Below the pieces are notes generated by a model. It saw nothing but the letters and a program-made list of their open reading frames with translations. It searched no databases and was not told the origin of the DNA. 53,150 nucleotides of DNA from Patescibacteria group bacterium (GTDB lineage: Bacteria; Patescibacteriota; Microgenomatia; UBA12405), in NCBI GenBank assembly GCA_050943115.1, contig JBMNON010000007.1, positions 1 to 53,150 of the forward strand. Reading direction: 5' to 3'. Shown piece after piece: positions 14,111-39,981 of this stretch (position 1 is the first letter of the stretch; every line of letters starts with the position of its first letter). The position numbers and the translations under genes were made by a program.

Positions 14111-17100
14111 TTATAGATTTCCCAGGAAGCCAAAGACTTCTTTTAGGTTGGTAATAACCAAGTCGAAGGCATTATCGGTGGCTTTTGGAGTAATAGTAAC
14201 CGTATCAATTGATTTACTAATGTTACCAGCACTATCTTTGGAAATGGCACGTAAATGATAAACCTTAGCCGGGGTGAGGCCGGAGATAATTACAACGTGA
14301 TTGTAGGAAAGGTTTTGATCTTCCTGTGACAACTGGTTGTAGTCGGTACCGGACCCTTCGCCGTACTCTACCTGACTGGTAGCCGGCTCATCAGTATTCC
14401 AGCTAATAATTAACTGGGAGAGGGCGGGTTGAGCGGTAGAATTGGACGGTGGGCTGTTAGCGCCTTCCACACTCATCTCAGAAATTTGCGGAGCACGGGT
14501 ATCAGAAGCAGTGGTAACCCTGACAGTGTCCGAGACAGCCTCGTTACCGATAATATCCTGACCCCTAACCCTTAACACGTAACCGGTATCAGGGAAGAGA
14601 CCTCGGATGATCATGCGATGATCGCCATCCCTTAGTTCAATATCAACATTATCCCGGACTAGTTCGGGGTTGTTCTCGGGATAGTAAGTGACGATGGAAG
14701 AAATGGCAGTATTGGACTCCCAAGTAACAAGTAGGGTTGATTGGGCAGTATTGGCTACCTGCTGAACACGGACATTGGTGACTCGGGGACGGGGAAGGGT
14801 TTCGAAATCAAGGATAGTGCCCTCGTATTCAGTATCCTCTTCATCGAAAGTATTGATTTTGTAGTAGTACTTAGTGCCATCCTCCAGCTGATTTAATTCA
14901 ACAGAATAGGAAGTTTCCAACTTCGAGGTACTGACTTCCTTGGCGCCGCCAAAACTAGTGGTAGTTCCGTAATAAATTTTGGCTTTGGTAGCATTTTTGG
15001 TGGTAAAGTTGACCAGAGCGCTGCTAATACCAACGTTACTCAGCCTTACCTCCTTAACTTCAGGCGGCGGTTCGGTAGTAAAATCCATTTCGTCACTTTC
15101 GCCGGTGTTACCATCTTCATCAGTCCAACGGGCTTTGAAGTAATATTTCGTGCCTGGAGATAAGTTGGTGAGCTGGATCTCGTGATCGGTTATGTGAACG
15201 GAACGATAGGCTTCGTCATCAAAATAGTTTCCGCTTGCCAAACCATAAGCAACCTTACTGTCACAAGTACGGCTGGTAGTCCAACTGATTGTAGCTTTTG
15301 AGGTGGTAATGGAGGAGGATGCGGGACCGGAAGTTAGTGGTGCCGGGACGGTATAGGAACCTTTGGGAATGATGGAAACTGCCGAAGAATAAGACGGACT
15401 GGCAATCGATTGATCAGAATTGTCGGTGGTGCCAACCCGCCAATAATAGCGCTTGGATTCTTCGACAGTGTCAACATAAGAAAAGCTAGTGGTTTGGGCC
15501 ACTTCTTCCCAGGTCAGAGCATCTTCAGAGCGCTCAATATGGTAAGTCAGGTTTCCTGTGCCTTTATAGGTGGGTTCACTCCAAACCAGGGATGATCGCC
15601 AAATAGAAACATCTTTGATAGAACTGTCGGCGACAGTTAGATTAGTAGGAGGATCAGGCAGTTCGGAATAAAGGTAGAAAGTGGCAGAGATGGTGTTGGT
15701 GGGTGAGTAGTTACTATTGCTGTCAACAGCAACGACATAAATAGTGTTGGCACCTTTTCTCAGGCCGGGAACCGTGAAGGTATCAATAGAAGTAGATTCA
15801 GTAGCTATATAGGTGGCTGAGTTAGAGGTTATGGTGGCGTAAGAAACCGGTGGTGGAGTATTAATCATGTAATAGTAGGTGTCAATAGTGTTGCCGGAGG
15901 AAGGTTCCGCCTCAGGCCAACTAAAGGCAAAACTATTGGTATCGTTTTGACCGGGAGTAACGGTAATAAAATCTCCCTGGGCAAATTTAGGGGCCTCACC
16001 ACCGTAGTTAATAAAAGCAGTTCTAAGTTCTGAAGCGTTGCCGGCACGATCGAGGATGCGAAAGAAGATAGTATTCTGGCCTAGCTGTATCAAGTCCTGA
16101 GCGGATGCGGGAAGATAAAAGGGTTGAGCAATTCCAAGTGAATAGTATTCAAGATTGGTACTGGGATCAAGCGTTTCCCCTATCCAACTATCCCGGGAAT
16201 TTATGGCGTATTGGAAGCCAAGAACCTGGGAATGTTCGTCATTGCCGGCAGTGCCATTGGTGGTGGGCCAAGTAAAAAACATATCAGAAGTGCTGGAAAA
16301 GGTACCGCTAGCGGCAGAAATGGCAACTACGTTTTCGGGAGCTGTGTTATCAAAGTAAAAGGAAATATAGTTGGTTTCGTCAGGACCGACATAAGTGTTG
16401 TTGGCAATATCAATAGTTTTGATCTTGAAATAATAAAGATCGTCGCTTGAGGTAAGCCATTCGTAGCTGCGAAGGGCAGAGTTAGAGAAATCTATTTCAG
16501 TATCGGCAGTTATAAACTGGCAAGTAGTGCCGGTAGTGCTGACAGGTGAAGAACCAAGCAGTCCTTTTTGGGTAGCCGGATCGCCTTCAAGATCGTTACC
16601 TAGGTAAACACAGTAACCTTTGACTCCTTGGGCATCGGAACCATCATCCCAGCTAAAGAAAAGATCGTTTCGATTAAACCAAACCGGCTCGTCAGAATGG
16701 GAGTATTCATGCAAAGCTTCGTCATGCGCTTTCATCTTCATATTGGCACCATTCGTCGGTCTTGATTGATCAATGATAAAAGAAGGTGTACCCGTTGCGG
16801 TAGTCCAATCTGATTCTCCCGATTTATTATCAATGGCTTTGACGCGCCAATAATAGTTATCGGTGCTGAGTTCCTGACCTTCAGAGCCTTCGTTGTATGT
16901 CCCTTCGCCAGCAGCCTGACCAACAGTAAAAGACTGAGTTCCCTGGGCTGCTTGGACAGAAACATAATCAATTATGGGAGATCCAAACTCAGATTCAGTA
17001 TCGACTTGGATTCGGTATCCGACAGTGTCGACTGCGTTAGGGTCACTCAAAACAAAGGAGAGCATCGGTTGAAGGCTATTAGTATACTGGCCGTTGATAA

Positions 17101-20100
17101 AGAACGATGATTCCGGGATGACAGGAGCTGAGGGAGGTGTGTTCATCACAACTCTAATATCAGCTTCGTCTTCAGTATTGTTACCATAGCTAACCCAATC
17201 GGAACAAAGGTTGGTAGCATCACAGGCACGAGCTTGCCAATGATAGCTCTCGGTATCGGCAAGACCATCAACAGTAACCTGAGCCGTGACAATAGCACCT
17301 GTATATACTACGCTGGCGCCGATGTTTGTGGCAACATTGGAAAATGGAGTTCCAAGTGTTTGAATTTCGACTTGCGGAGTAATCGTGTCCTCACTGTCAC
17401 CATCCTGAACCTGAAAAGTAGCAATAAATGATGATTCATCAGTGTTTCCTCCCTGTCCAATAGCGGTGGTATTATCAGTTTTAAATTGACGTAGATTAAG
17501 TGGATCAGATGATTTTCCACCTAAAAATATAGTACCAATTCCGCCATTTTGGGCACTAGCACCAGATGCAACACCCCCATTAACACTCAATACTGAAAAG
17601 TTTGTGGTGTTTGTTCCGTAATACAATGCAATTCGACCACCACCACCAGCTCCACCATCGTATGTATAGTTGGCCGTGTTGCCTCCATTTGCAGTAACTG
17701 ATCCGGAACCTATTAATGTTTCTGTAGTAACCCAGATTGATCCGCCTGATCCTCCACCATTACCATGGTAGTTGTCATAAAGCCCACCGTTACCCCCATT
17801 TGCTGAAATCACTCCATTCAGAGTGGCGGTGGCACCAATACTAATCTTGATGACACCACCACCATGACCAGCAGCATATCCGTGATGGCCACCCCCTGAG
17901 CCAAGTAAATCAGGAGAACGTTCTTCACCATAAGGCACTTTGTTCCCCGCCCGACTTTGTCCATTACCTCCTTCACCGCCATAAGCAGCACCGCCGGCTC
18001 CGTTAGAGCCGCTAACTCCGGTTCCCGGTCCATAACCATCCGAGTAGCCTTTTCCGTTAACATTTATTGAACCAGAAGGATTTACGGTAAGGTTCTCGTC
18101 AATAGCAAGTATAAGTTTATTAACTTCTTCATTGGTATTTTCTGAATGGCTTAAGGTCCCGTTTACGGTAACATTATCATAATGTCTGGCAATATTAGTT
18201 TCGAGAGTAGCTCCTGAAGGAATTGTAAGATTACCACCCGTACTAATAACAGCAAAATCGCAGCCATTGTCAACTAATATTGCTGACCAGTTAAGGGTGG
18301 TGTAATCAATAGCTGCCGAACTTTGACAGATAAAGGAAGATCCGTTTAGTAAATTAATGGTATTTACATTTAAGTTTCCCGATAGATCAAAAAATGATTT
18401 TTGATCAATAACAATCGTTGATGTGACATTAAGTGAGGAAGAATAATCTATGTTGGAGTAATCAGTAATAGTAATATTGGATACATTAAGTGAGTCTGGC
18501 AATACTGTTTTGGCAACTTTAGACCGTAAGGAAGACCAGTTAGGATCGTTGTTGTCAACAATTAGATCACCATAACTTATTGAACTTGATTTGAGATATA
18601 TTGTACCAGCACCGCCTTTTTGACAGGTAGAGGCTGCGCCGCTAGGTTTCCCTCCATATGCATATATTCTATCGATAGCAAAGGGCAAGCTATCATAATA
18701 AATTGCAATCCGGCCACCACCCCCACCTCCCCCATCCTTATCTGAATAGCCATCAGCAGAACCACCGCCAGATGCACTGATAGTGCTGCCACCTTTTACT
18801 TCATTGGCATCGATCCATACGGAACCACCGGCACCCCCACCACCACTGCCATCATAACTATAACTTGGACCGGCATTTCCATTTGCAGATATCGGGCCGC
18901 CAACGTCAATATAACCACCAACAATAAACTTAATTGCACCACCACCGGCACCGCCGTATCCGGAAACTTGACCTCCCCCACTTCCCAAAGTCACTGGCTG
19001 AGTAGCTGAACCATAAGGAACAATACTCCCTGCCCGTGTTCTACCATTACCGCCATTACCGCCATGAGCAGCACCACCAGATCCATCTGCTCCATCTGTA
19101 CCCTCGCCCGTACCATAGCCAATACCAAAACCTTTGCCATTAACATTGACCGATCCGGATGAACTTATTGAAAGATTGCCGCCAATAGTATAGTTGATTT
19201 TGTAAACTTCGGAATCGATATTTTCTGTATGAGTTAGGACTCCGTCGATAAAAACATTACTATAGCTTCGAGGTACATTCGAGTGAAGGGTAGAACCAGA
19301 CGGAATAGTTAAATCGACACCGCTGCTTAAGATAGCAAAGGTGCCGCCATTATCGACTAATATGCCTCCGTTCCAATCGATAGTGTTATAAACGATATTT
19401 GCACCAAGTTGGCTAAATAGGGTGGCATTGTTGTGGACAATTAGATTGTCAGCAGTAATTCCTCCAGATGATTCAAGAAATGATTTTTGGTCGAGTGTAA
19501 GGCTTGAAACCACATTAAGGGAAGAAGTATAGTCGATGTTGGAGTAATTAGTAATGGCAAGATTATCCAAAGTAAGCGTGGAAGGAAGTGTTGTTTTAGC
19601 TACCCGGGTACGGGAAGTAGACCAATCATTGTCCTTGTTGTCTATTACAAAATCGCCATTAGTTGCCGTAGCGGCTTTTAAGTAAATTGTGCCGGCACCG
19701 CCTTTTTGGGTTGCACTGTGATCCCCCTGAGGGATGCCTCCCTTGGCTGATATCTGACTTAACCCAACAGAATTTGTATCGTAATAGAGAGCAATGCGAC
19801 CACCACCACCACCACCACCATCACCATAATAAGTATTGGTAGCACCACCACCATCCGCACTTATAGTGCTACTACCAGTAATCTCGTTTGCATTAATCCA
19901 AATTGAACCTCCAGAACCACCTCCAGAACCGTGTGAATAAAAATCAGAAGTAACACTATCGCCTCCATTTGCAGATACCGGACCGCCCACATTAAAAGTA
20001 CCAGTGATAATAAGCTTAACAGCACCACCGCCATGTCCTGCCTGAAAAGTATTATTATGACCGCCCCCACTTCCTATCGTTGCTGGCTGAGTAGCTGAAC

Positions 20101-21799
20101 CGTAAGAAATTACGCTTCCAAGTCTGGTTTGACCATTACCGCCATTGCCTCCGTGAGCTGCGCCTCCGGCACCCTTGTCTCCGTCAGCGCCATCTCCAGT
20201 ACCATTGCCATCAGAATAACCTTTACTATCTACATCGATAGAACCGGTAGAGTTTATTGTGAAGTCACCATCAACGTTATAGTTGATTTTGTAGGTGTCA
20301 GAGTTAGTATTGTCGGTATGAGTTAATGTGCCATTTATGGTGACACCTGAATAGCTTCGAGGAACATTGGCATGTAAGGTAGAGGTGGCTGGCACAATTA
20401 AGTTACCTCCTCCACTTAACATCGAGAAGGTACCTCCGTTATCGACTAAAATACCACCAGTCCAATCAAGAGAATTATAGTTAATATTCGCGCCAACATG
20501 ATTAAAAAAGTAGGCATTGTGATGTACAACAAGATTATTAACGGTAGCATTGTTGCTTAAACCAAAAAAGGCTTTTTGGTCAACTGTGAGGGATGATTCT
20601 ACATTAAGTACCGAAGTATATTCGATATCGGCAAAATTTGTTATTGTTAGATTATCGACTGTAAGATTGGAAGGTAGGGGGGTTTTGGCTAAGCGTGGGC
20701 GAGATGTGGACCAAACGATATCTTCATTGTCAACGACAATATCGCCGTATGTCGCAGAAACATTTTTTAGGAAAATTGTACCGGCGCCACCCTTTTGACA
20801 GTTGGTGTGATCACCATCAGGTTTAGCGCCTTGTACAGATATTTGTTCCAGAGTGACGCTACTTGAAGAATAATATAGTGCAATACGTCCACCGGCTCCA
20901 CCACCACCATCACCATAATAGGTATTGATAGTCCCTCCGCCTTCAGCAAGTAAATTACCACTACCATTTAAAGAGCCCGTTTGAATCCAGATTGATCCGC
21001 CGGAACCACCGCCGGAACCATGAGAATAATAATCAGAAGTAGAACTTCGAGCACCATTTGCAGAAATTGTTCCGTTAATCGTTGTTGTTCCCGATACTGT
21101 TAACTTTACTGCTCCTCCACCAACGCCAGACTGATTATTGTAGTCACCCCCTCCGCTTCCTAAAGTAACAGGTTGAGTTAGCGAACCGTAAGAGATAACC
21201 CCACCGGCCCTGGTCTGACCATTACCACCGAAACCACCGTGAGCAGCACCTCCGGCACCTCCGTTACCATCAGTACCCTCTCCCGGACCGGAACCTTTAC
21301 CATACCCTTTTGAATTAGCGTTTATAGTACCATGAACATAGGCGTTGCCGGATTGAACATCAATGTTGATTTTGCCGACTATTGAAGCACCGGAACCGGC
21401 AGTATGGGTAATGTTGCCTCCCGGATAGACAGTTAAATCACCGGCAGCTAGAGTAAGGGCACCAAGGGATATGGCGTCATAGGAGAACTCAAGAGATGAG
21501 GCAGCAGTATTATCTATTTTTCCTAATATAAGGGAATTTATAGTGACCGGTGAAGAAAGAATAACAGTAACATTGGAATCTATGAGAACGTCGTCGTCAG
21601 CAGCGGGGACAATATCAGTGTCCCAATTGAGAGGGTCAAGCCAGGAAGTACCATCGCCACCACCGTCCCAAATAATACTAGCGGCAGCCCGAATGTACCA
21701 AGTATGGAAAACAGGGAAGAGATAGACACTTGAGAAAAGACTGATGAAAAAAGCCGTCAGAATAAATACTCGTTTATTAAAAAGTTTCCTAATTTTCAT
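14111..21799 (-). CDS. Giant (2562 aa) surface protein: four ~362-aa Gly-rich beta-repeat units plus C-terminal FN3/Ig-like domains
   Basis: N-terminal anchor or signal; repeated KG(Y/F)...GAA(H/Y)GG.GGNG...GSGGG...GGRIA units; FN3-like segments (ISWTTS...YYFKARW, LTPAKVYHLRAIS). Confidence 0.9.
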   Translation of the reverse strand: MKIRKLFNKRVFILTAFFISLFSSVYLFPVFHTWYIRAAASIIWDGGGDGTSWLDPLNWDTDIVPAADDDVLIDSNVTVILSSPVTINSLILGKIDNTAASSLEFSYDAISLGALTLAAGDLTVYPGGNITHTAGSGASIVGKINIDVQSGNAYVHGTINANSKGYGKGSGPGEGTDGNGGAGGAAHGGFGGNGQTRAGGVISYGSLTQPVTLGSGGGDYNNQSGVGGGAVKLTVSGTTTINGTISANGARSSTSDYYSHGSGGGSGGSIWIQTGSLNGSGNLLAEGGGTINTYYGDGGGGAGGRIALYYSSSSVTLEQISVQGAKPDGDHTNCQKGGAGTIFLKNVSATYGDIVVDNEDIVWSTSRPRLAKTPLPSNLTVDNLTITNFADIEYTSVLNVESSLTVDQKAFFGLSNNATVNNLVVHHNAYFFNHVGANINYNSLDWTGGILVDNGGTFSMLSGGGNLIVPATSTLHANVPRSYSGVTINGTLTHTDNTNSDTYKINYNVDGDFTINSTGSIDVDSKGYSDGNGTGDGADGDKGAGGAAHGGNGGNGQTRLGSVISYGSATQPATIGSGGGHNNTFQAGHGGGAVKLIITGTFNVGGPVSANGGDSVTSDFYSHGSGGGSGGSIWINANEITGSSTISADGGGATNTYYGDGGGGGGGRIALYYDTNSVGLSQISAKGGIPQGDHSATQKGGAGTIYLKAATATNGDFVIDNKDNDWSTSRTRVAKTTLPSTLTLDNLAITNYSNIDYTSSLNVVSSLTLDQKSFLESSGGITADNLIVHNNATLFSQLGANIVYNTIDWNGGILVDNGGTFAILSSGVDLTIPSGSTLHSNVPRSYSNVFIDGVLTHTENIDSEVYKINYTIGGNLSISSSGSVNVNGKGFGIGYGTGEGTDGADGSGGAAHGGNGGNGRTRAGSIVPYGSATQPVTLGSGGGQVSGYGGAGGGAIKFIVGGYIDVGGPISANGNAGPSYSYDGSGGGGAGGSVWIDANEVKGGSTISASGGGSADGYSDKDGGGGGGGRIAIYYDSLPFAIDRIYAYGGKPSGAASTCQKGGAGTIYLKSSSISYGDLIVDNNDPNWSSLRSKVAKTVLPDSLNVSNITITDYSNIDYSSSLNVTSTIVIDQKSFFDLSGNLNVNTINLLNGSSFICQSSAAIDYTTLNWSAILVDNGCDFAVISTGGNLTIPSGATLETNIARHYDNVTVNGTLSHSENTNEEVNKLILAIDENLTVNPSGSINVNGKGYSDGYGPGTGVSGSNGAGGAAYGGEGGNGQSRAGNKVPYGEERSPDLLGSGGGHHGYAAGHGGGVIKISIGATATLNGVISANGGNGGLYDNYHGNGGGSGGSIWVTTETLIGSGSVTANGGNTANYTYDGGAGGGGRIALYYGTNTTNFSVLSVNGGVASGASAQNGGIGTIFLGGKSSDPLNLRQFKTDNTTAIGQGGNTDESSFIATFQVQDGDSEDTITPQVEIQTLGTPFSNVATNIGASVVYTGAIVTAQVTVDGLADTESYHWQARACDATNLCSDWVSYGNNTEDEADIRVVMNTPPSAPVIPESSFFINGQYTNSLQPMLSFVLSDPNAVDTVGYRIQVDTESEFGSPIIDYVSVQAAQGTQSFTVGQAAGEGTYNEGSEGQELSTDNYYWRVKAIDNKSGESDWTTATGTPSFIIDQSRPTNGANMKMKAHDEALHEYSHSDEPVWFNRNDLFFSWDDGSDAQGVKGYCVYLGNDLEGDPATQKGLLGSSPVSTTGTTCQFITADTEIDFSNSALRSYEWLTSSDDLYYFKIKTIDIANNTYVGPDETNYISFYFDNTAPENVVAISAASGTFSSTSDMFFTWPTTNGTAGNDEHSQVLGFQYAINSRDSWIGETLDPSTNLEYYSLGIAQPFYLPASAQDLIQLGQNTIFFRILDRAGNASELRTAFINYGGEAPKFAQGDFITVTPGQNDTNSFAFSWPEAEPSSGNTIDTYYYMINTPPPVSYATITSNSATYIATESTSIDTFTVPGLRKGANTIYVVAVDSNSNYSPTNTISATFYLYSELPDPPTNLTVADSSIKDVSIWRSSLVWSEPTYKGTGNLTYHIERSEDALTWEEVAQTTSFSYVDTVEESKRYYWRVGTTDNSDQSIASPSYSSAVSIIPKGSYTVPAPLTSGPASSSITTSKATISWTTSRTCDSKVAYGLASGNYFDDEAYRSVHITDHEIQLTNLSPGTKYYFKARWTDEDGNTGESDEMDFTTEPPPEVKEVRLSNVGISSALVNFTTKNATKAKIYYGTTTSFGGAKEVSTSKLETSYSVELNQLEDGTKYYYKINTFDEEDTEYEGTILDFETLPRPRVTNVRVQQVANTAQSTLLVTWESNTAISSIVTYYPENNPELVRDNVDIELRDGDHRMIIRGLFPDTGYVLRVRGQDIIGNEAVSDTVRVTTASDTRAPQISEMSVEGANSPPSNSTAQPALSQLIISWNTDEPATSQVEYGEGSGTDYNQLSQEDQNLSYNHVVIISGLTPAKVYHLRAISKDSAGNISKSIDTVTITPKATDNAFDLVITNLKEVFGFLGNL
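17600..21400 (-). repeat. Four diverged in-frame tandem units within the giant gene
   Basis: Equivalent Lys codons of the KG(Y/F) motif at 21308, 20222, 19133 and 18050 give spacings of 1086, 1089 and 1083 bp. Boundaries approximate. Confidence 0.85.
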
Positions 21800-37090: not shown

Positions 37091-38823
37091 TTACCAACAC
37101 CACCAAAGGAAACATTTTTTAGATGCTTGACCGGATTGAGAATCAGTTTGTGTTTGTTTGGGTGGTTCAGTTGGTTTTGGTGATTGAGTAGGGGCCGGGG
37201 TTGTTTGTGGAGCTTGACTTGGAACAGCAGATTTTGGAGATATTTTTATAACATAATTAGGTACAGTATTGCTGACAGGAGAAAAACCTTTGTAAAAGGT
37301 TTGGGAGTTAGTTTTAAACGCCATAACATTACTCCAATCCCCGGGCATACAGCCGTTTTGGCCGCGGACTTTGGCGTAATAAGTGGTGCCAGGTTTGAGA
37401 TGAAAAATTGTATGGGACTGGACACCTTCCCGGAGTAGAGTAACGGCTTCACCATGTTCCTCGACATTAGATTTTTCGGGAAAGCTAACATAGAAATCAG
37501 AAGTATCGGCTTGTGGGGTGAAGAAGAGTTTGGCAGAAGTTTGGGTAGTTCTGATCTCAAAGAGATCGGGGATAAAGAGAGGTTTGGAGGAGGTACAGGC
37601 AGGCGTTCCGGGGGGTGAGGAGGAAGATGTGGCGGGTGAGAAGGTAGTTTCGAGGTGGGGAGAAGGGGCGGGAGTGGATTCGGGTGTGGGAGTGGGGGTA
37701 GGATTTTCTTGAGGTTCCGGCTGCCATGCAAGGATGGGGTAAGTGTCAGTTGTTTGCCAGACTTCCTCAAAATTCCACTGGTCTTCCCCTTGTGTATAAA
37801 TGCCGTGATCGGAGGAATAAAATGCCGCTTTGTCTGTTTCGTTATAAAAACTTTCTGTGGACGGTATTGAGTCGCCATCTCCAATGACATCAGTAAAGCT
37901 ACCCGTCCACCAGCCGTTATTGTTAAAGGTTGAGCTAGTGACATAACCGATTAATCCACCGACGGATTCGCTACCGTTAACTGAACCGACTGAAAAAGAA
38001 GATTCCAGGATGGCTCCGTCAAGATATCCTACCAGACCGCCCACATATGTATCTCCGGTAACATCACCTGAAGCATATGTGTTAATTATCTGACCACTAT
38101 CGGAACATACCAAACCACCGCCACAAAAGTCGGCAGTAACCTGTCCGGTAGCATAGGAGTTGCTGATTTGGCCGAAGTTTGTAGACACTAAACCGCCAGT
38201 TATGCATCCGCCGGAAACAGTAACAGAGGATGAGGAATTGGTAATCGTGCCATGGTTGGTCCCAATCAGTCCGCCGACGCCGTCTTCCATGTGTTGGTAG
38301 ACGAGATCGGCAGCAACACCCGACGAAGAACAGTTGGTTACCGTACCTGAATTAATGCACGCCAACGCCGAGGTGCAGGTATCTCCGGTGATATCGACAT
38401 CTTCAAGAATAAGATTGGATATAACTGATGTTTCACCGGTAACACCAAACAACCCTATCGCCTCAGTATCAGGACGGTTAATAAATAGGTTTGAAATGGC
38501 ATAACCTTGACCATTTAGAGTCCCGGTAAAGGATTATCGCTGTTGCCAATGGGATTGAAACCCAAATAGTTTTCTAGGCCATCCTGATACCAAGAGGCGG
38601 TCTCTGAACAGTCTATGTTCTGAGTAAGGACAAAATGTTTATCAAAATAGATGATATCTTCCGCAATAATTCTCAAGTCCTGGCATGATTCTATCCGGTA
38701 GGGCGATTCCGAAGTACCGTTACCTTCAAGATCAGCAGCATAGAGATGGCGGGGAGATACGACTATTAGAAGAAGTAGCAAAGTTATCAGGGAGCATACC
38801 GAACGAAGGACAGGAGAGATCAT
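37091..38823 (-). pseudogene. Secreted GLUG-motif/FN3 surface protein split by a 1-nt frameshift at ~38529
   Basis: First ORF ends NPIGNSDNPLPGL*; adding one T (CCT TTT ACC) gives NPFTGTLNGQGYAISNLFINRP...GLFG, continuous with the GLUG repeats (VGGLIG, GGLVG), Pro/Thr linker, FN3 domain and KKCFLWWCW tail. Confidence 0.85.
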
Positions 38824-38877
38824 ATACTAATTGTAAATTCTAAGACTAAGATTACAAGGAGGGATGAAGTTCTTTAC

Positions 38878-38932
38878 TTTGTGTTTCGTCCTATTGGACT
38901 CGTCAGTATAGAGGAACATCTATAAACACAAA
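38878..38932 (-). ncRNA. Type III hammerhead ribozyme (HHR2)
   Basis: Minus strand: UUUGUGUU^UAUAGA-UGUUCC-UCUAUA CUGACGA GUCC-AAUA-GGAC GAA ACACAAA. Complete core, GUU cleavage triplet, 6-bp stem I, 4-bp stem II, 7-bp stem III. Predicted cut between 38925 and 38924. Confidence 0.9.
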
Positions 38933-39013
38933 CAAAACCCAAACCAGGGAACCGAGAGACTAATAAGTCGCAGTAAGACCTCCCGTCTCTCGGTCCCAAG
39001 GATTGGGTTTGTG
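38932..39013 (-). other. Long imperfect RNA hairpin between HTH gene stop and HHR2
   Basis: ACCCAA/UUGGGU, GGGACCGAGAGAC/GUCUCUCGGUUCC (13 bp, one G-U) and apical GUC/GAC stems. Confidence 0.82.
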
Positions 39014-39580
39014 CTAGCCTAATGTCTCGAGGTACCTATCGACACTGTCCTGGTCGACGTGCCAACGCTTAGCAGCTCCATCTCCAGTTGTCGATGCCTG
39101 AAGTGTACCCTCGTCGATTAGTTGAACCACCTTGTAGTCGGGAAGACTGAGTCTCCGAGCTGTGCTAGTTAAACTATCTGCTCTGTACGGTGCTCCCCGA
39201 CCTTTCCTCTTTGGAGGTTGTGTTAGTTCACTGCCAGGTTTTGGTGTCATGACTTCTTTGTCGTTTCGATGAAAAGAGAAGCCAGACTCCTCCCGCTGGA
39301 GACGCAAACCCATGACCCTGTAGATATAACTCTCAAGCCACTGATTGAACTCAGATATCGTATCGAGAAACCTATCAGTACCAGTGATCCTAACCACGTA
39401 CGATTCGAGCTCATCATCGGAGATGAACACGACATGGCTACCCGATTCGCTTTTGACAAGAAAGCCGCCGATCAGGCAGGAAGCCAGGATTTGTCGAACC
39501 TCCTTCTTGTTTGGAGTACCACAATAGTAGCAATAGTTAACCGTTATGGCGACTTCCCGTCCACACTCAAAGCACTTCAT
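39014..39580 (-). CDS. Zn-ribbon plus C-terminal excisionase-type HTH protein
   Basis: N-terminal CFEC...CYYC; C-terminal SLTSTARRLSLPDYKVVQLIDEGTLQAS...KRWHVDQDSVDRYLE; SD AAGGAG. Confidence 0.78.
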   Translation of the reverse strand: MKCFECGREVAITVNYCYYCGTPNKKEVRQILASCLIGGFLVKSESGSHVVFISDDELESYVVRITGTDRFLDTISEFNQWLESYIYRVMGLRLQREESGFSFHRNDKEVMTPKPGSELTQPPKRKGRGAPYRADSLTSTARRLSLPDYKVVQLIDEGTLQASTTGDGAAKRWHVDQDSVDRYLETLG

Positions 39581-39603
39581 GTTCTGTTCTCCTTTTGAGA
39601 TTT

Positions 39604-39659
39604 ATTGGGGCGACCTTGATGCTTAATAACTATTATGTAAGCACTAAGGCCGCCCCAAT
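39604..39659 (-). other. Rod-like hairpin in the 5' leader of the HTH gene
   Basis: AUUGGGGCGGCCUU/AAGGUCGCCCCAAU (14 bp, one G-U) plus UGCUUA/UAAGCA, ending shortly before the SD. Confidence 0.75.
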
Positions 39660-39981
39660 TACAGGCTAGTACTATTTGTTAACGAACATAATTATAAATT
39701 GTTGTTTCTTATAATTATGGCCGAAATTATCCCATATTATGATAATATAGTCAATACTACAGGTCTATTTTGTGTTAAGTTTTATAGTAATTAGACAGGG
39801 CTGAATAATGTTTTAGTTGTAAAACAGAGAGTGTGTGCAAAACCGAATCCATTCTTTTACAATACTAGAGAGAATAATTTGGATTTAGTCAAATTATACC
39901 TATTTAACCGTCTTCTTTATTTACTTTAAAAATGAATGGATCTAGAACCAATAACTCTTGCGATCATACCCTAGCTTATTT

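Follow-up and report, generated by a model that had tools for sequence, protein, structure and literature searches.

The 53,150-nt stretch of Patescibacteria DNA analyzed here (contig JBMNON010000007.1, hereafter the window) carries on its minus strand two compact single-gene units, each of which ends in a long hairpin followed by a predicted type III hammerhead ribozyme. Cassette 2 (39754..38878) comprises a promoter-like site, a structured 5' untranslated region (UTR), ORF2, a hairpin and ribozyme HHR2, and cassette 1 (8053..7354), with ORF1 and ribozyme HHR1, has the same order of elements on the same strand (Table 1). The gene-hairpin-ribozyme order of both cassettes and the positions of the cassette 2 elements had been described in an earlier interpretation made without database searches (the sequence-only reading), and both were recovered here. 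We propose that the hammerhead works in cis, making the 3' end of the mRNA for a helix-turn-helix (HTH) protein and insulating the next gene, as part of a fast-evolving, lineage-specific single-gene unit in the chromosome of a Microgenomates-type bacterium. We put the probability of this reading at about one half.

Under this proposal, a sigma-70-type promoter would drive an mRNA with a structured 5' UTR, encoding a small DNA-binding protein that combines a zinc ribbon with an HTH domain of the excisionase family. Once the polymerase had passed the hairpin and the ribozyme, the RNA would cut itself 10 nt 3' of the hairpin (38925/38924). The HTH mRNA would be released as the upstream product, with a very stable hairpin near its end and then 10 nt of tail bearing a 2',3'-cyclic phosphate, and such an end should resist 3' exonucleases. 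The downstream product would begin with a 5'-OH and be uncoupled from the HTH message, and any read-through would be stopped short of the next gene, which is served by a promoter of its own. We favor this reading because both ribozymes lie 3' of a stop codon and hairpin, on the strand of the gene, and 5' of downstream promoter-like sites.

In bacteria, hammerheads are found flanking single genes and cleave polycistronic RNA both in vitro and in vivo, and they were proposed to process longer RNAs into gene-length mRNAs, their function being otherwise unknown (Perreault et al., 2011; PMC3088659). A role in 3' end formation extends that proposal. The cassettes share with those hammerheads the placement of coding-strand ribozymes between genes and the bracketing of single genes; they differ in being solitary, in having their own promoter, an ordinary chromosomal neighborhood and a Patescibacteria host, and in the fusion of a hairpin to the ribozyme. 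Bacterial hammerheads have been known since 2011, and the cassettes offer an unusually clean test case for their biological role, with a single gene under its own promoter, a ribozyme-hairpin pair at the expected end of the message, and a neighboring promoter that is kept in ribozyme-less relatives. If the proposal is correct, they would be a natural counterpart of the ribozyme insulators of synthetic biology, and would give organisms whose RNA-processing machinery is reduced a way to make stable messages. Self-cleavage of the glmS ribozyme, which acts with RNase J1 decay, and of the synthetic RiboJ insulator leaves a 5'-OH on the downstream RNA and a 2',3'-cyclic phosphate on the upstream RNA. 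The cassettes resemble both systems in that a message would be uncoupled from its transcriptional context. They differ in that no ligand control is evident and that the proposed beneficiary is the upstream message, which would gain a new 3' end on a hairpin.

Hammerhead ribozymes of the two cassettes

HHR2 matches the full model of Rfam family RF00008 (Hammerhead_3) with 46.6 bits (E = 3.7e-9 in a 501-nt search and 4e-7 when the whole window was compared with all 4227 Rfam families), and HHR1 matches it over its full length with 42.1 bits (window-wide E = 7.2e-6). The curated gathering threshold of the family is 48.5 bits. At gathering thresholds Rfam yields 0 matches in the window, and HHR1 and HHR2 surface only with E-value thresholds; their scores fall short because their loops are short or atypical. 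Under model R1, which covers 80 related ribozymes, HHR2 scores 61.3 bits and HHR1 51 bits. Neither this model nor the Rfam E-value search found a further hammerhead in the window.

The conserved core is complete in HHR2 (CUGACGA ... GAAA, A15.1-U16.1, H17 = U, GU/U) and intact in HHR1 (CUGACGA ... GAAA, GU/C). HHR2 has a stem I of 5-6 bp, a GUCC/GGAC stem II and a stem III of 7 bp, and the corresponding helices of HHR1 measure 5 bp, 4-5 bp and up to 9 bp. Both ribozymes have the type III arrangement, in which stems I and II are closed by loops and stem III is open. Cleavage is predicted after U38925 in HHR2, at a GUU triplet, which is also where the sequence-only reading had placed it, and at 7402/7401 in HHR1, at a GUC triplet. 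The same reading had described the two as homologous ribozymes with preserved structure, and this is upheld; one stem III pair differs by a compensatory change (16.4/15.4, A-U in HHR2 and G-C in HHR1). HHR1 and HHR2 look like real hammerhead ribozymes in a new setting. Like the RF00008 ribozymes of virusoids and satellite RNAs, they have the full core, three stems of which stem III is open, an NUH triplet and an alignment over the full length of the model. Unlike them, they are chromosomal, in a bacterium, and present in single copy per unit; their loops depart from the GAUGUGUA/GAAA pair, and they score 2-6 bits under the threshold.

It is very improbable that HHR1 and HHR2 are decayed or chance hammerhead-like sequences, inactive and lying beside ordinary terminator hairpins. 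The sub-threshold scores and atypical loops fit such an origin, as does the behavior of a loose core pattern, which has 11 matches where 3.6 are expected (11 were reached in 1 of 100 shuffles). Against this, the window holds two full-length matches with window-wide E values of 4e-7 and 7e-6 and no other, the core is intact in both and stem III carries a compensatory change. The same architecture also occurs in an independent genome (locus L103, described below), where the ribozyme scores 63.5 bits.

Terminal hairpins and RNA folding

Each ribozyme directly follows a 3' hairpin of 28-30 bp, in which the 5' arm is A/C-rich and the 3' arm G/U-rich. The arms of the 3' hairpin of cassette 2 (26 nt) form the longest inverted repeat of the window, and the two hairpins of this cassette rank as its top two. 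The 151 nt from the ORF2 stop codon to HHR2 fold with -59.3 kcal/mol (z = -5.8), and the minimum-energy fold of this stretch shows the 3' hairpin and the complete hammerhead side by side. With z = -1.3, the coding region shows no unusual structure; the strong z found for the unit as a whole therefore stems from the end hairpins, and structure is a feature of the ends. A viroid-type, rod-like folding of the whole unit was considered and is ruled out by the same value.

In cassette 2 the hairpin is followed by UUUUGUUUGUGUU, with 7 U in the first 8 positions, and in cassette 1 by UAUGUUUAUGU, a weaker U-tract. A simple terminator scanner called neither hairpin, their loops being too complex for it. 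The U-rich tract after the hairpin also serves as the 5' strand of stem III in cassette 2 and L103, and termination and cleavage would therefore give nearly the same end. In these two cassettes the ribozyme may be a fail-safe alongside intrinsic termination. G-U content was uninformative as a clue to the strand on which the hairpins act, both strands being about equally stable. A textbook intrinsic terminator (AAAAATGGCCCT...AGGGCCATTTTTTAT), unlike the cassette hairpins, lies at 4044..4077 (+). It explains a chance Rfam match to the 'Histone3' stem-loop at 4048..4092 and indicates that the genome uses ordinary terminators.

Downstream genes and related genomes

The gene downstream of cassette 1 encodes a response regulator whose best named relatives are in Shapirobacteria and Gottesmanbacteria; this protein assigns the organism to Patescibacteria. 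Four related contigs, with response regulators 70-74% identical, keep the synteny of a giant surface protein, ABC/FtsX genes, and the response regulator with its histidine kinase. None of them has an HTH gene or a hammerhead within 10 kb, and model R1 found no hammerhead in about 100 kb from related species. Upstream of the response regulator the relatives conserve TTCAGCTAAnTTTCAGC, N6-7, TATAAT, N9 and GTG. Homology to their promoter begins about 6 nt past the 3' end of HHR1, which places the end of cassette 1 at the ribozyme. Since this promoter is conserved in relatives that have neither cassette nor ribozyme, the response regulator has an older promoter of its own, independent of the ribozyme. 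Cassette 1 thus appears to be a lineage-specific addition, or to have been lost in the relatives. Its left border is not definable, as that side is rearranged in the relatives.

The response-regulator upstream region in the window (7347..7305, minus strand) and in all four relatives (L244:9960-10003, L245, L246 and L248) contains a direct repeat TTCAGC-N5-TTCAGC, TATAAT and, 9 nt on, GTG, with no Shine-Dalgarno sequence. It probably serves as an autoregulatory operator of the OmpR type, with a start that is nearly leaderless. The gene 3' of cassette 2 looks leaderless too (TACAAT at 38835..38830, ATG at 38823).

These arrangements bear on whether the ribozyme instead serves the downstream gene, by giving it a defined 5'-OH and a 5' cap, formed by the folded body of the ribozyme, that protects or insulates the message in the manner of RiboJ. 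In the window both downstream genes lie on the same strand as the ribozyme, and elsewhere, as shown below, a Shine-Dalgarno sequence and start codon often follow a hammerhead. The window genes, by contrast, lack a Shine-Dalgarno sequence and carry promoter-like sites 6-9 nt 5' of the start codon, and the response-regulator promoter is conserved in ribozyme-less relatives. Because the downstream promoters are conserved, we consider a role in the downstream message unlikely in the window.

Related hammerheads in Patescibacteria

A scan for CTGANGAGTCC-N3-9-GGACGAAAC in one genome per species found at least 119 loci. Among the 135 pattern matches listed, stems I and III of the type III form are perfect in 93, and about three quarters of the loci with perfect stems are labelled Patescibacteria. 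The alignment of 80 of these sequences is clean, with 10 of 17 pairs varying on both sides. The sequences had been selected for pairing beforehand, so the figure of 98% paired positions is partly by construction and only the variety of pair types is informative. Model R1 gave 132 matches in 89 loci (among the loci listed), including many same-strand arrays with up to six ribozymes per 3 kb. The ribozyme type is thus common in Patescibacteria, and its same-strand arrays often flank small ORFs. A metagenome scan returned mostly type I/II hammerheads from marine and coral samples, 16 type III hammerheads, and no further HTH cassette.

The hairpin proved general. Of the 70-nt segments directly 5' of 103 related type III hammerheads, 62% fold with z < -2, compared with 23% of control segments taken 300 nt farther 5'. 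The median length of the terminal hairpin is 10 bp, and the distance from its end to stem III has a median of 1 nt and is usually 0-5 nt. We conclude that the general companion of type III hammerheads is the hairpin and not the HTH domain. Only three of the 62 ORFs upstream of related hammerheads (among the loci listed) match HTH_17, namely ORF1, ORF2 and the ORF at L103, and an iterative search with the three HTH C-termini against 679 upstream reading frames found no further relative. L103, in Shapirobacteria UBA1435, is a third instance of the architecture: a protein whose N-terminus is unrelated and whose C-terminus holds a TIGR01764-like HTH (E = 0.008), followed by a long A/C//G/U hairpin and then a CUGACGAG-type hammerhead, scored with model R1. 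The sequence-only reading had expected the association of hammerheads with HTH genes to recur in other genomes and took its absence as evidence against itself. With only one further case, that expectation is partly undercut.

Other ORFs can stand in the same place. In Woesebacteria, two hairpin-hammerhead modules surround two unrelated orphan ORFs of 195 and 132 aa (L013:6520-7775, minus strand). The two hairpins there are alike (GGGGAGTAAAAAT... and GGAGTAAAAGAA...), and as in the window, hairpins of the same genome look related. ORFs upstream of related ribozymes exceed their own locus by a median of 5 GC points.

Among the 93 hammerheads with perfect stems, 32 have a GTTCTTTGA/GTTCTTTAACA motif (GUUCUUUGA/GUUCUUUAACA) within about 10 nt 3' of stem III (L008:3074-3150, L010, L016, L063, L070, L073 and L080 are examples), and a long hairpin, a Shine-Dalgarno sequence and ATG often follow. 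As a motif, GTTCTTTGA is not enriched across the whole window. The 5' UTR of cassette 2 (GTTCGTTAACA, hairpin, Shine-Dalgarno sequence) shows the layout seen 3' of other hammerheads, without an upstream ribozyme.

Arrays of three to six same-strand type III hammerheads, spaced by 300-1200 nt, were found in the Patescibacteria loci L012:3340-6410 (+), L059:2062-7184 (-), L064:4216-6211 (+), L104:2601-6334 (+), L113:2681-3527 (-) and L042:4639-5688 (+). The spacers of the L012 array are GC-rich and lack a clear single reading frame; array units could be small mRNAs or non-coding RNAs. Beyond cellular genomes, model R1 matches six viral contigs of 4-59 kb in IMG/VR (L250, L251 and L254-L257). It also gives 64-65 bits, as high as for its own members, on two IMG/VR records of 366 and 377 nt that look like plant virusoids (L252 and L253). 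This places the bacterial ribozymes in the virusoid-like type III class, down to loop 1 GAUGUGUA and loop 2 GAAA. No paper was found that ties hammerheads to Patescibacteria, to the candidate phyla radiation or to excisionase genes. Nor did the searchable literature yield an account of how common the type is in Patescibacteria, of its coupling to an upstream hairpin, or of same-strand arrays around small, GC-rich, poorly conserved ORFs.

The kinship with virusoids raises the question of circular RNA, which the sequence-only reading had suggested for these units: a unit would be excised and ligated, by RtcB or by reversal of the ribozyme, into a circular or viroid-like RNA encoding the HTH protein. 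Besides membership in the virusoid-like class, this idea draws on the arrays, where units are bounded by two ribozymes and stem III mostly follows one consensus (80-sequence alignment), so that their ends could pair. Each window cassette, by contrast, has one ribozyme and its own promoter, and its RNA would begin with a triphosphate and not with a ribozyme-made 5'-OH. Neither Rfam nor R1 detected a second or degenerate ribozyme upstream, and circular products of bacterial arrays were sought earlier and not found (Perreault et al., 2011; PMC3088659). Because of the single ribozyme per unit, the separate promoter and a coding region that is not rod-like, circular RNA from these units is unsupported, and we rate it as highly unlikely. 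Retrozymes and viroid-like circular RNAs resemble the cassettes in their type III hammerhead class and in being, or including, DNA-encoded ribozyme units. The cassettes differ from them in having one ribozyme cut site per unit where those have two (or a multimeric transcript), an interior that codes for a protein, a fold that is not rod-like and no nearby reverse transcriptase.

A wider conjecture, which we regard as a long shot, joins these observations. Patescibacteria may carry undescribed ribozyme-bounded units, both arrayed and solitary with their own promoter, with the order hammerhead, GUUCUUUGA, 5' hairpin, small fast-evolving ORF, 3' hairpin, hammerhead. Units cut from arrays could close into circular, protein-coding, viroid-like RNAs through the hammerhead halves at their ends, and the window cassettes would be domesticated or degenerate forms that have kept the 3' half.

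Points against a 3'-end role

Several observations weigh against 3' end formation by the hammerheads. Both ribozymes fall just under the curated Rfam threshold, and their loops 1 and 2 are off the consensus of the related ribozymes (GAUGUGUA and AAAA/GAAA), so that the tertiary contacts on which fast cleavage depends may be weak. The GUU triplet is in the minority, being found in 14 of the 93 matches listed, HHR2 included. The stem III of HHR1 is A/U-rich and weak and does not form in the minimum-energy fold of a 156-nt context, and cleavage by both ribozymes, like the resulting transcript ends, is a prediction. The hairpins are about equally stable on the opposite strand, which makes a role at the DNA level possible. 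Ordinary intrinsic terminators are present in the window, and a ribozyme is not obviously needed. Finally, at other Patescibacteria loci a Shine-Dalgarno sequence and start codon lie 20-40 nt 3' of the ribozyme, often after GUUCUUUGA and a hairpin, which points to a role in the downstream message at those loci.

Comparison of the cassettes and their proteins

The DNA of the two cassettes was compared by local alignment, segment by segment, against 300 shuffles. Significant similarity is confined to the ends: the ribozyme (z = 14.9; 0 of 300 shuffles reach the score) and a promoter block of 46 nt (39777..39733 and 8062..8017) with about 75% identity (z = 6.5; 0 of 300). The 5' UTR follows at z = 3.1 (4 of 300). 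The ORFs and hairpin sequences have diverged, with z = -1.4 for the N-terminal half of the ORF (298 of 300), 0.3 for its C-terminal half (125 of 300) and 0.6 for the hairpin (86 of 300). Conserved ends around a divergent interior fit selection on expression signals. The shared promoter block and HTH domain suggest that the proteins may regulate their own genes. No other copy of the block was found in the window or the fetched loci. Across the hairpins of cassettes 1 and 2 and L103, compensatory changes affect 11 of 33 predicted pairs in a weak three-sequence alignment, and hairpin shape appears to be kept where sequence is not. At the Shine-Dalgarno sequence, AAAGGA is invariant across the same three cassettes.

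The sequence-only reading saw a constant HTH-hairpin-ribozyme chassis with variable N-terminal domains. The HTH on otherwise unrelated proteins, the L103 case and the common promoter block agree with this picture; the hairpin is constant in shape and not in sequence.

Table 1. Features of cassettes 2 and 1 in the window.
Feature	Position	Strand	Description
Cassette 2 promoter-like site	39726..39754	-	TTGACT, 17 nt, GATAAT, TG-extended -10; 10/12 matches; putative function
Cassette 2 5' UTR hairpin 1 (CAUAAUUAUAAG...UUUAUAAUUAUG)	39687..39719	-	Minimum-energy and centroid folds of the whole unit
GUUCGUUAACA	39677..39687	-	Resembles the GUUCUUUGA/GUUCUUUAACA motif 3' of related Patescibacteria hammerheads (resemblance only)
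Cassette 2 5' UTR hairpin 2	39604..39659	-	22-nt arms; second-longest inverted repeat of the window; -34.4 kcal/mol
Cassette 2 Shine-Dalgarno sequence	39589..39594	-	AAGGAG, 8 nt 5' of ATG
ORF2	39014..39580	-	188 aa; 4-Cys zinc ribbon at the N-terminus, then an unassigned middle, a basic linker and, at the C-terminus, an excisionase-family HTH
Cassette 2 long 3' hairpin	38935..39010	-	About 76 nt, about 28 bp, -44.4 kcal/mol; then UUUUGUUUGUGUU
HHR2	38878..38932	-	Type III hammerhead; RF00008, model R1, core check
Cassette 1 promoter-like site	8025..8053	-	ATGACT, 17 nt, TACAAT, TG before the -10 hexamer
ORF1	7492..7929	-	145 aa; excisionase-family HTH at the C-terminus, scoring above the curated cut-offs
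Cassette 1 long 3' hairpin	7414..7486	-	About 30 bp, -46.7 kcal/mol
HHR1	7354..7409	-	Type III hammerhead; RF00008, model R1

The C-terminus of ORF1 matches HTH_17 (PF12728) with 42.6 bits (cut-off 27, E = 7.5e-11) and TIGR01764 'excise' with 31.4 bits (cut-off 28.8). ORF2 gave matches below the curated cut-offs in the expected places: a CxxC...CxxC zinc ribbon at residues 3-20 (Zn_Ribbon_1, E = 0.001), HTH_17 at residues 141-186 (17.6 bits, E = 0.0047) and TIGR01764 (18.2 bits, E = 0.0023). These agree with the N-terminal CxxC-CxxC and C-terminal excisionase-like HTH that the sequence-only reading had assigned to it. ORF1 and ORF2 can be aligned only over their last 32 or so residues (31% identity, E = 0.007). 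A word-indexed search of 5.8 billion proteins returned only self-matches for both, and an exhaustive HMMER search of 1.84 billion representatives with ORF2 returned zinc-ribbon repeat proteins and nothing else; judged by these searches, the two appear to be orphan proteins. PHROGs and PADLOC left the cassette proteins unmatched, and a PDB sequence search with ORF1 gave a best E no lower than 0.19. AlphaFold2 on ORF2 without an alignment reached a mean pLDDT of 39.8, which is unusable. Excisionase and HTH_17 proteins share with the cassettes a domain of about 50 residues, clear in ORF1 and weaker in ORF2 and L103. In the cassettes, by contrast, this domain sits at the C-terminus of larger proteins with unrelated N-terminal parts and no partner integrase was seen.

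Genomic setting and possible origin

The neighbors of the cassettes are ordinary chromosomal genes, including GreA, a DEAD-box helicase, a P-type ATPase, OMP decarboxylase, a two-component system, ABC transporters and a radical SAM enzyme. The window has a GC content of 40.4%. ORF1 (GC 0.505, GC3 0.644) and ORF2 (GC 0.492, GC3 0.513) rank highest in both measures among the 46 window ORFs. No integrase, transposase or phage family occurs among 25 listed of the 39 families that match the other 38 window ORFs, nor adjoining cassette 2, and no direct or inverted flanking repeats, target-site duplications or terminal inverted repeats of at least 9 nt were found around the cassettes. An excisionase function would call for an adjoining cognate integrase and att repeats, and neither was found among the families listed or as flanking repeats of at least 9 nt.

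The composition of the ORFs points to a possible foreign origin. The cassettes could be mobile single-gene modules, either moron-like insertions or the leftovers of an element, whose proteins are recombination directionality factors or element regulators and whose hairpin-ribozyme pair was inherited from arrays and is not adapted to its site. We find this conceivable and on balance doubtful. The orphan status of both proteins, their excisionase-family domain and the elevated GC of ORFs 5' of related ribozymes agree with it, as does cassette 1, which is absent at the response-regulator promoter of the relatives and whose 3' border is the ribozyme end. The same ribozyme type occurs in arrays and in the six viral contigs, and hammerheads in bacteria often lie close to integrases and prophages (PMC3088659). 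The lack of mobile-element families among those listed and of flanking repeats of at least 9 nt, the unmatched PHROG and PADLOC searches, and a left insertion border that cannot be defined in a region rearranged in relatives speak against it. The idea concerns origin, and it is compatible with the 3'-end mechanism.

Integron gene cassettes offer a further likeness, with variable ORFs, a structured imperfect inverted repeat and atypical composition. They were rejected as a model in view of the cassettes' own promoters, the ribozyme after the hairpin and the lack of an integrase among the families listed. No attC core sites were recognized in either cassette, checked by eye only.

Other genes of the window also deserve mention. 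Downstream of cassette 2, a 102-aa ORF with a signal-peptide-like N-terminus (38515..38823, minus strand) is separated by a 62-nt gap from a TTG-started 453-aa GLUG/fn3 ORF (37091..38452, minus strand), and the two may be a single gene that is split or miscalled. On identical contigs, gene callers differ on the GLUG gene (399 aa vs 453 aa); contigs of this strain occur in samples SRR31066035, SRR31061296, SRR29050537 and SRR19732726. A 2562-aa ORF at 14111..21799 (-) has counterparts of 2558 aa in the related contigs, with faint fn3 and PhoD_N-like matches, and these share synteny with the two-component system and the ABC/FtsX genes.

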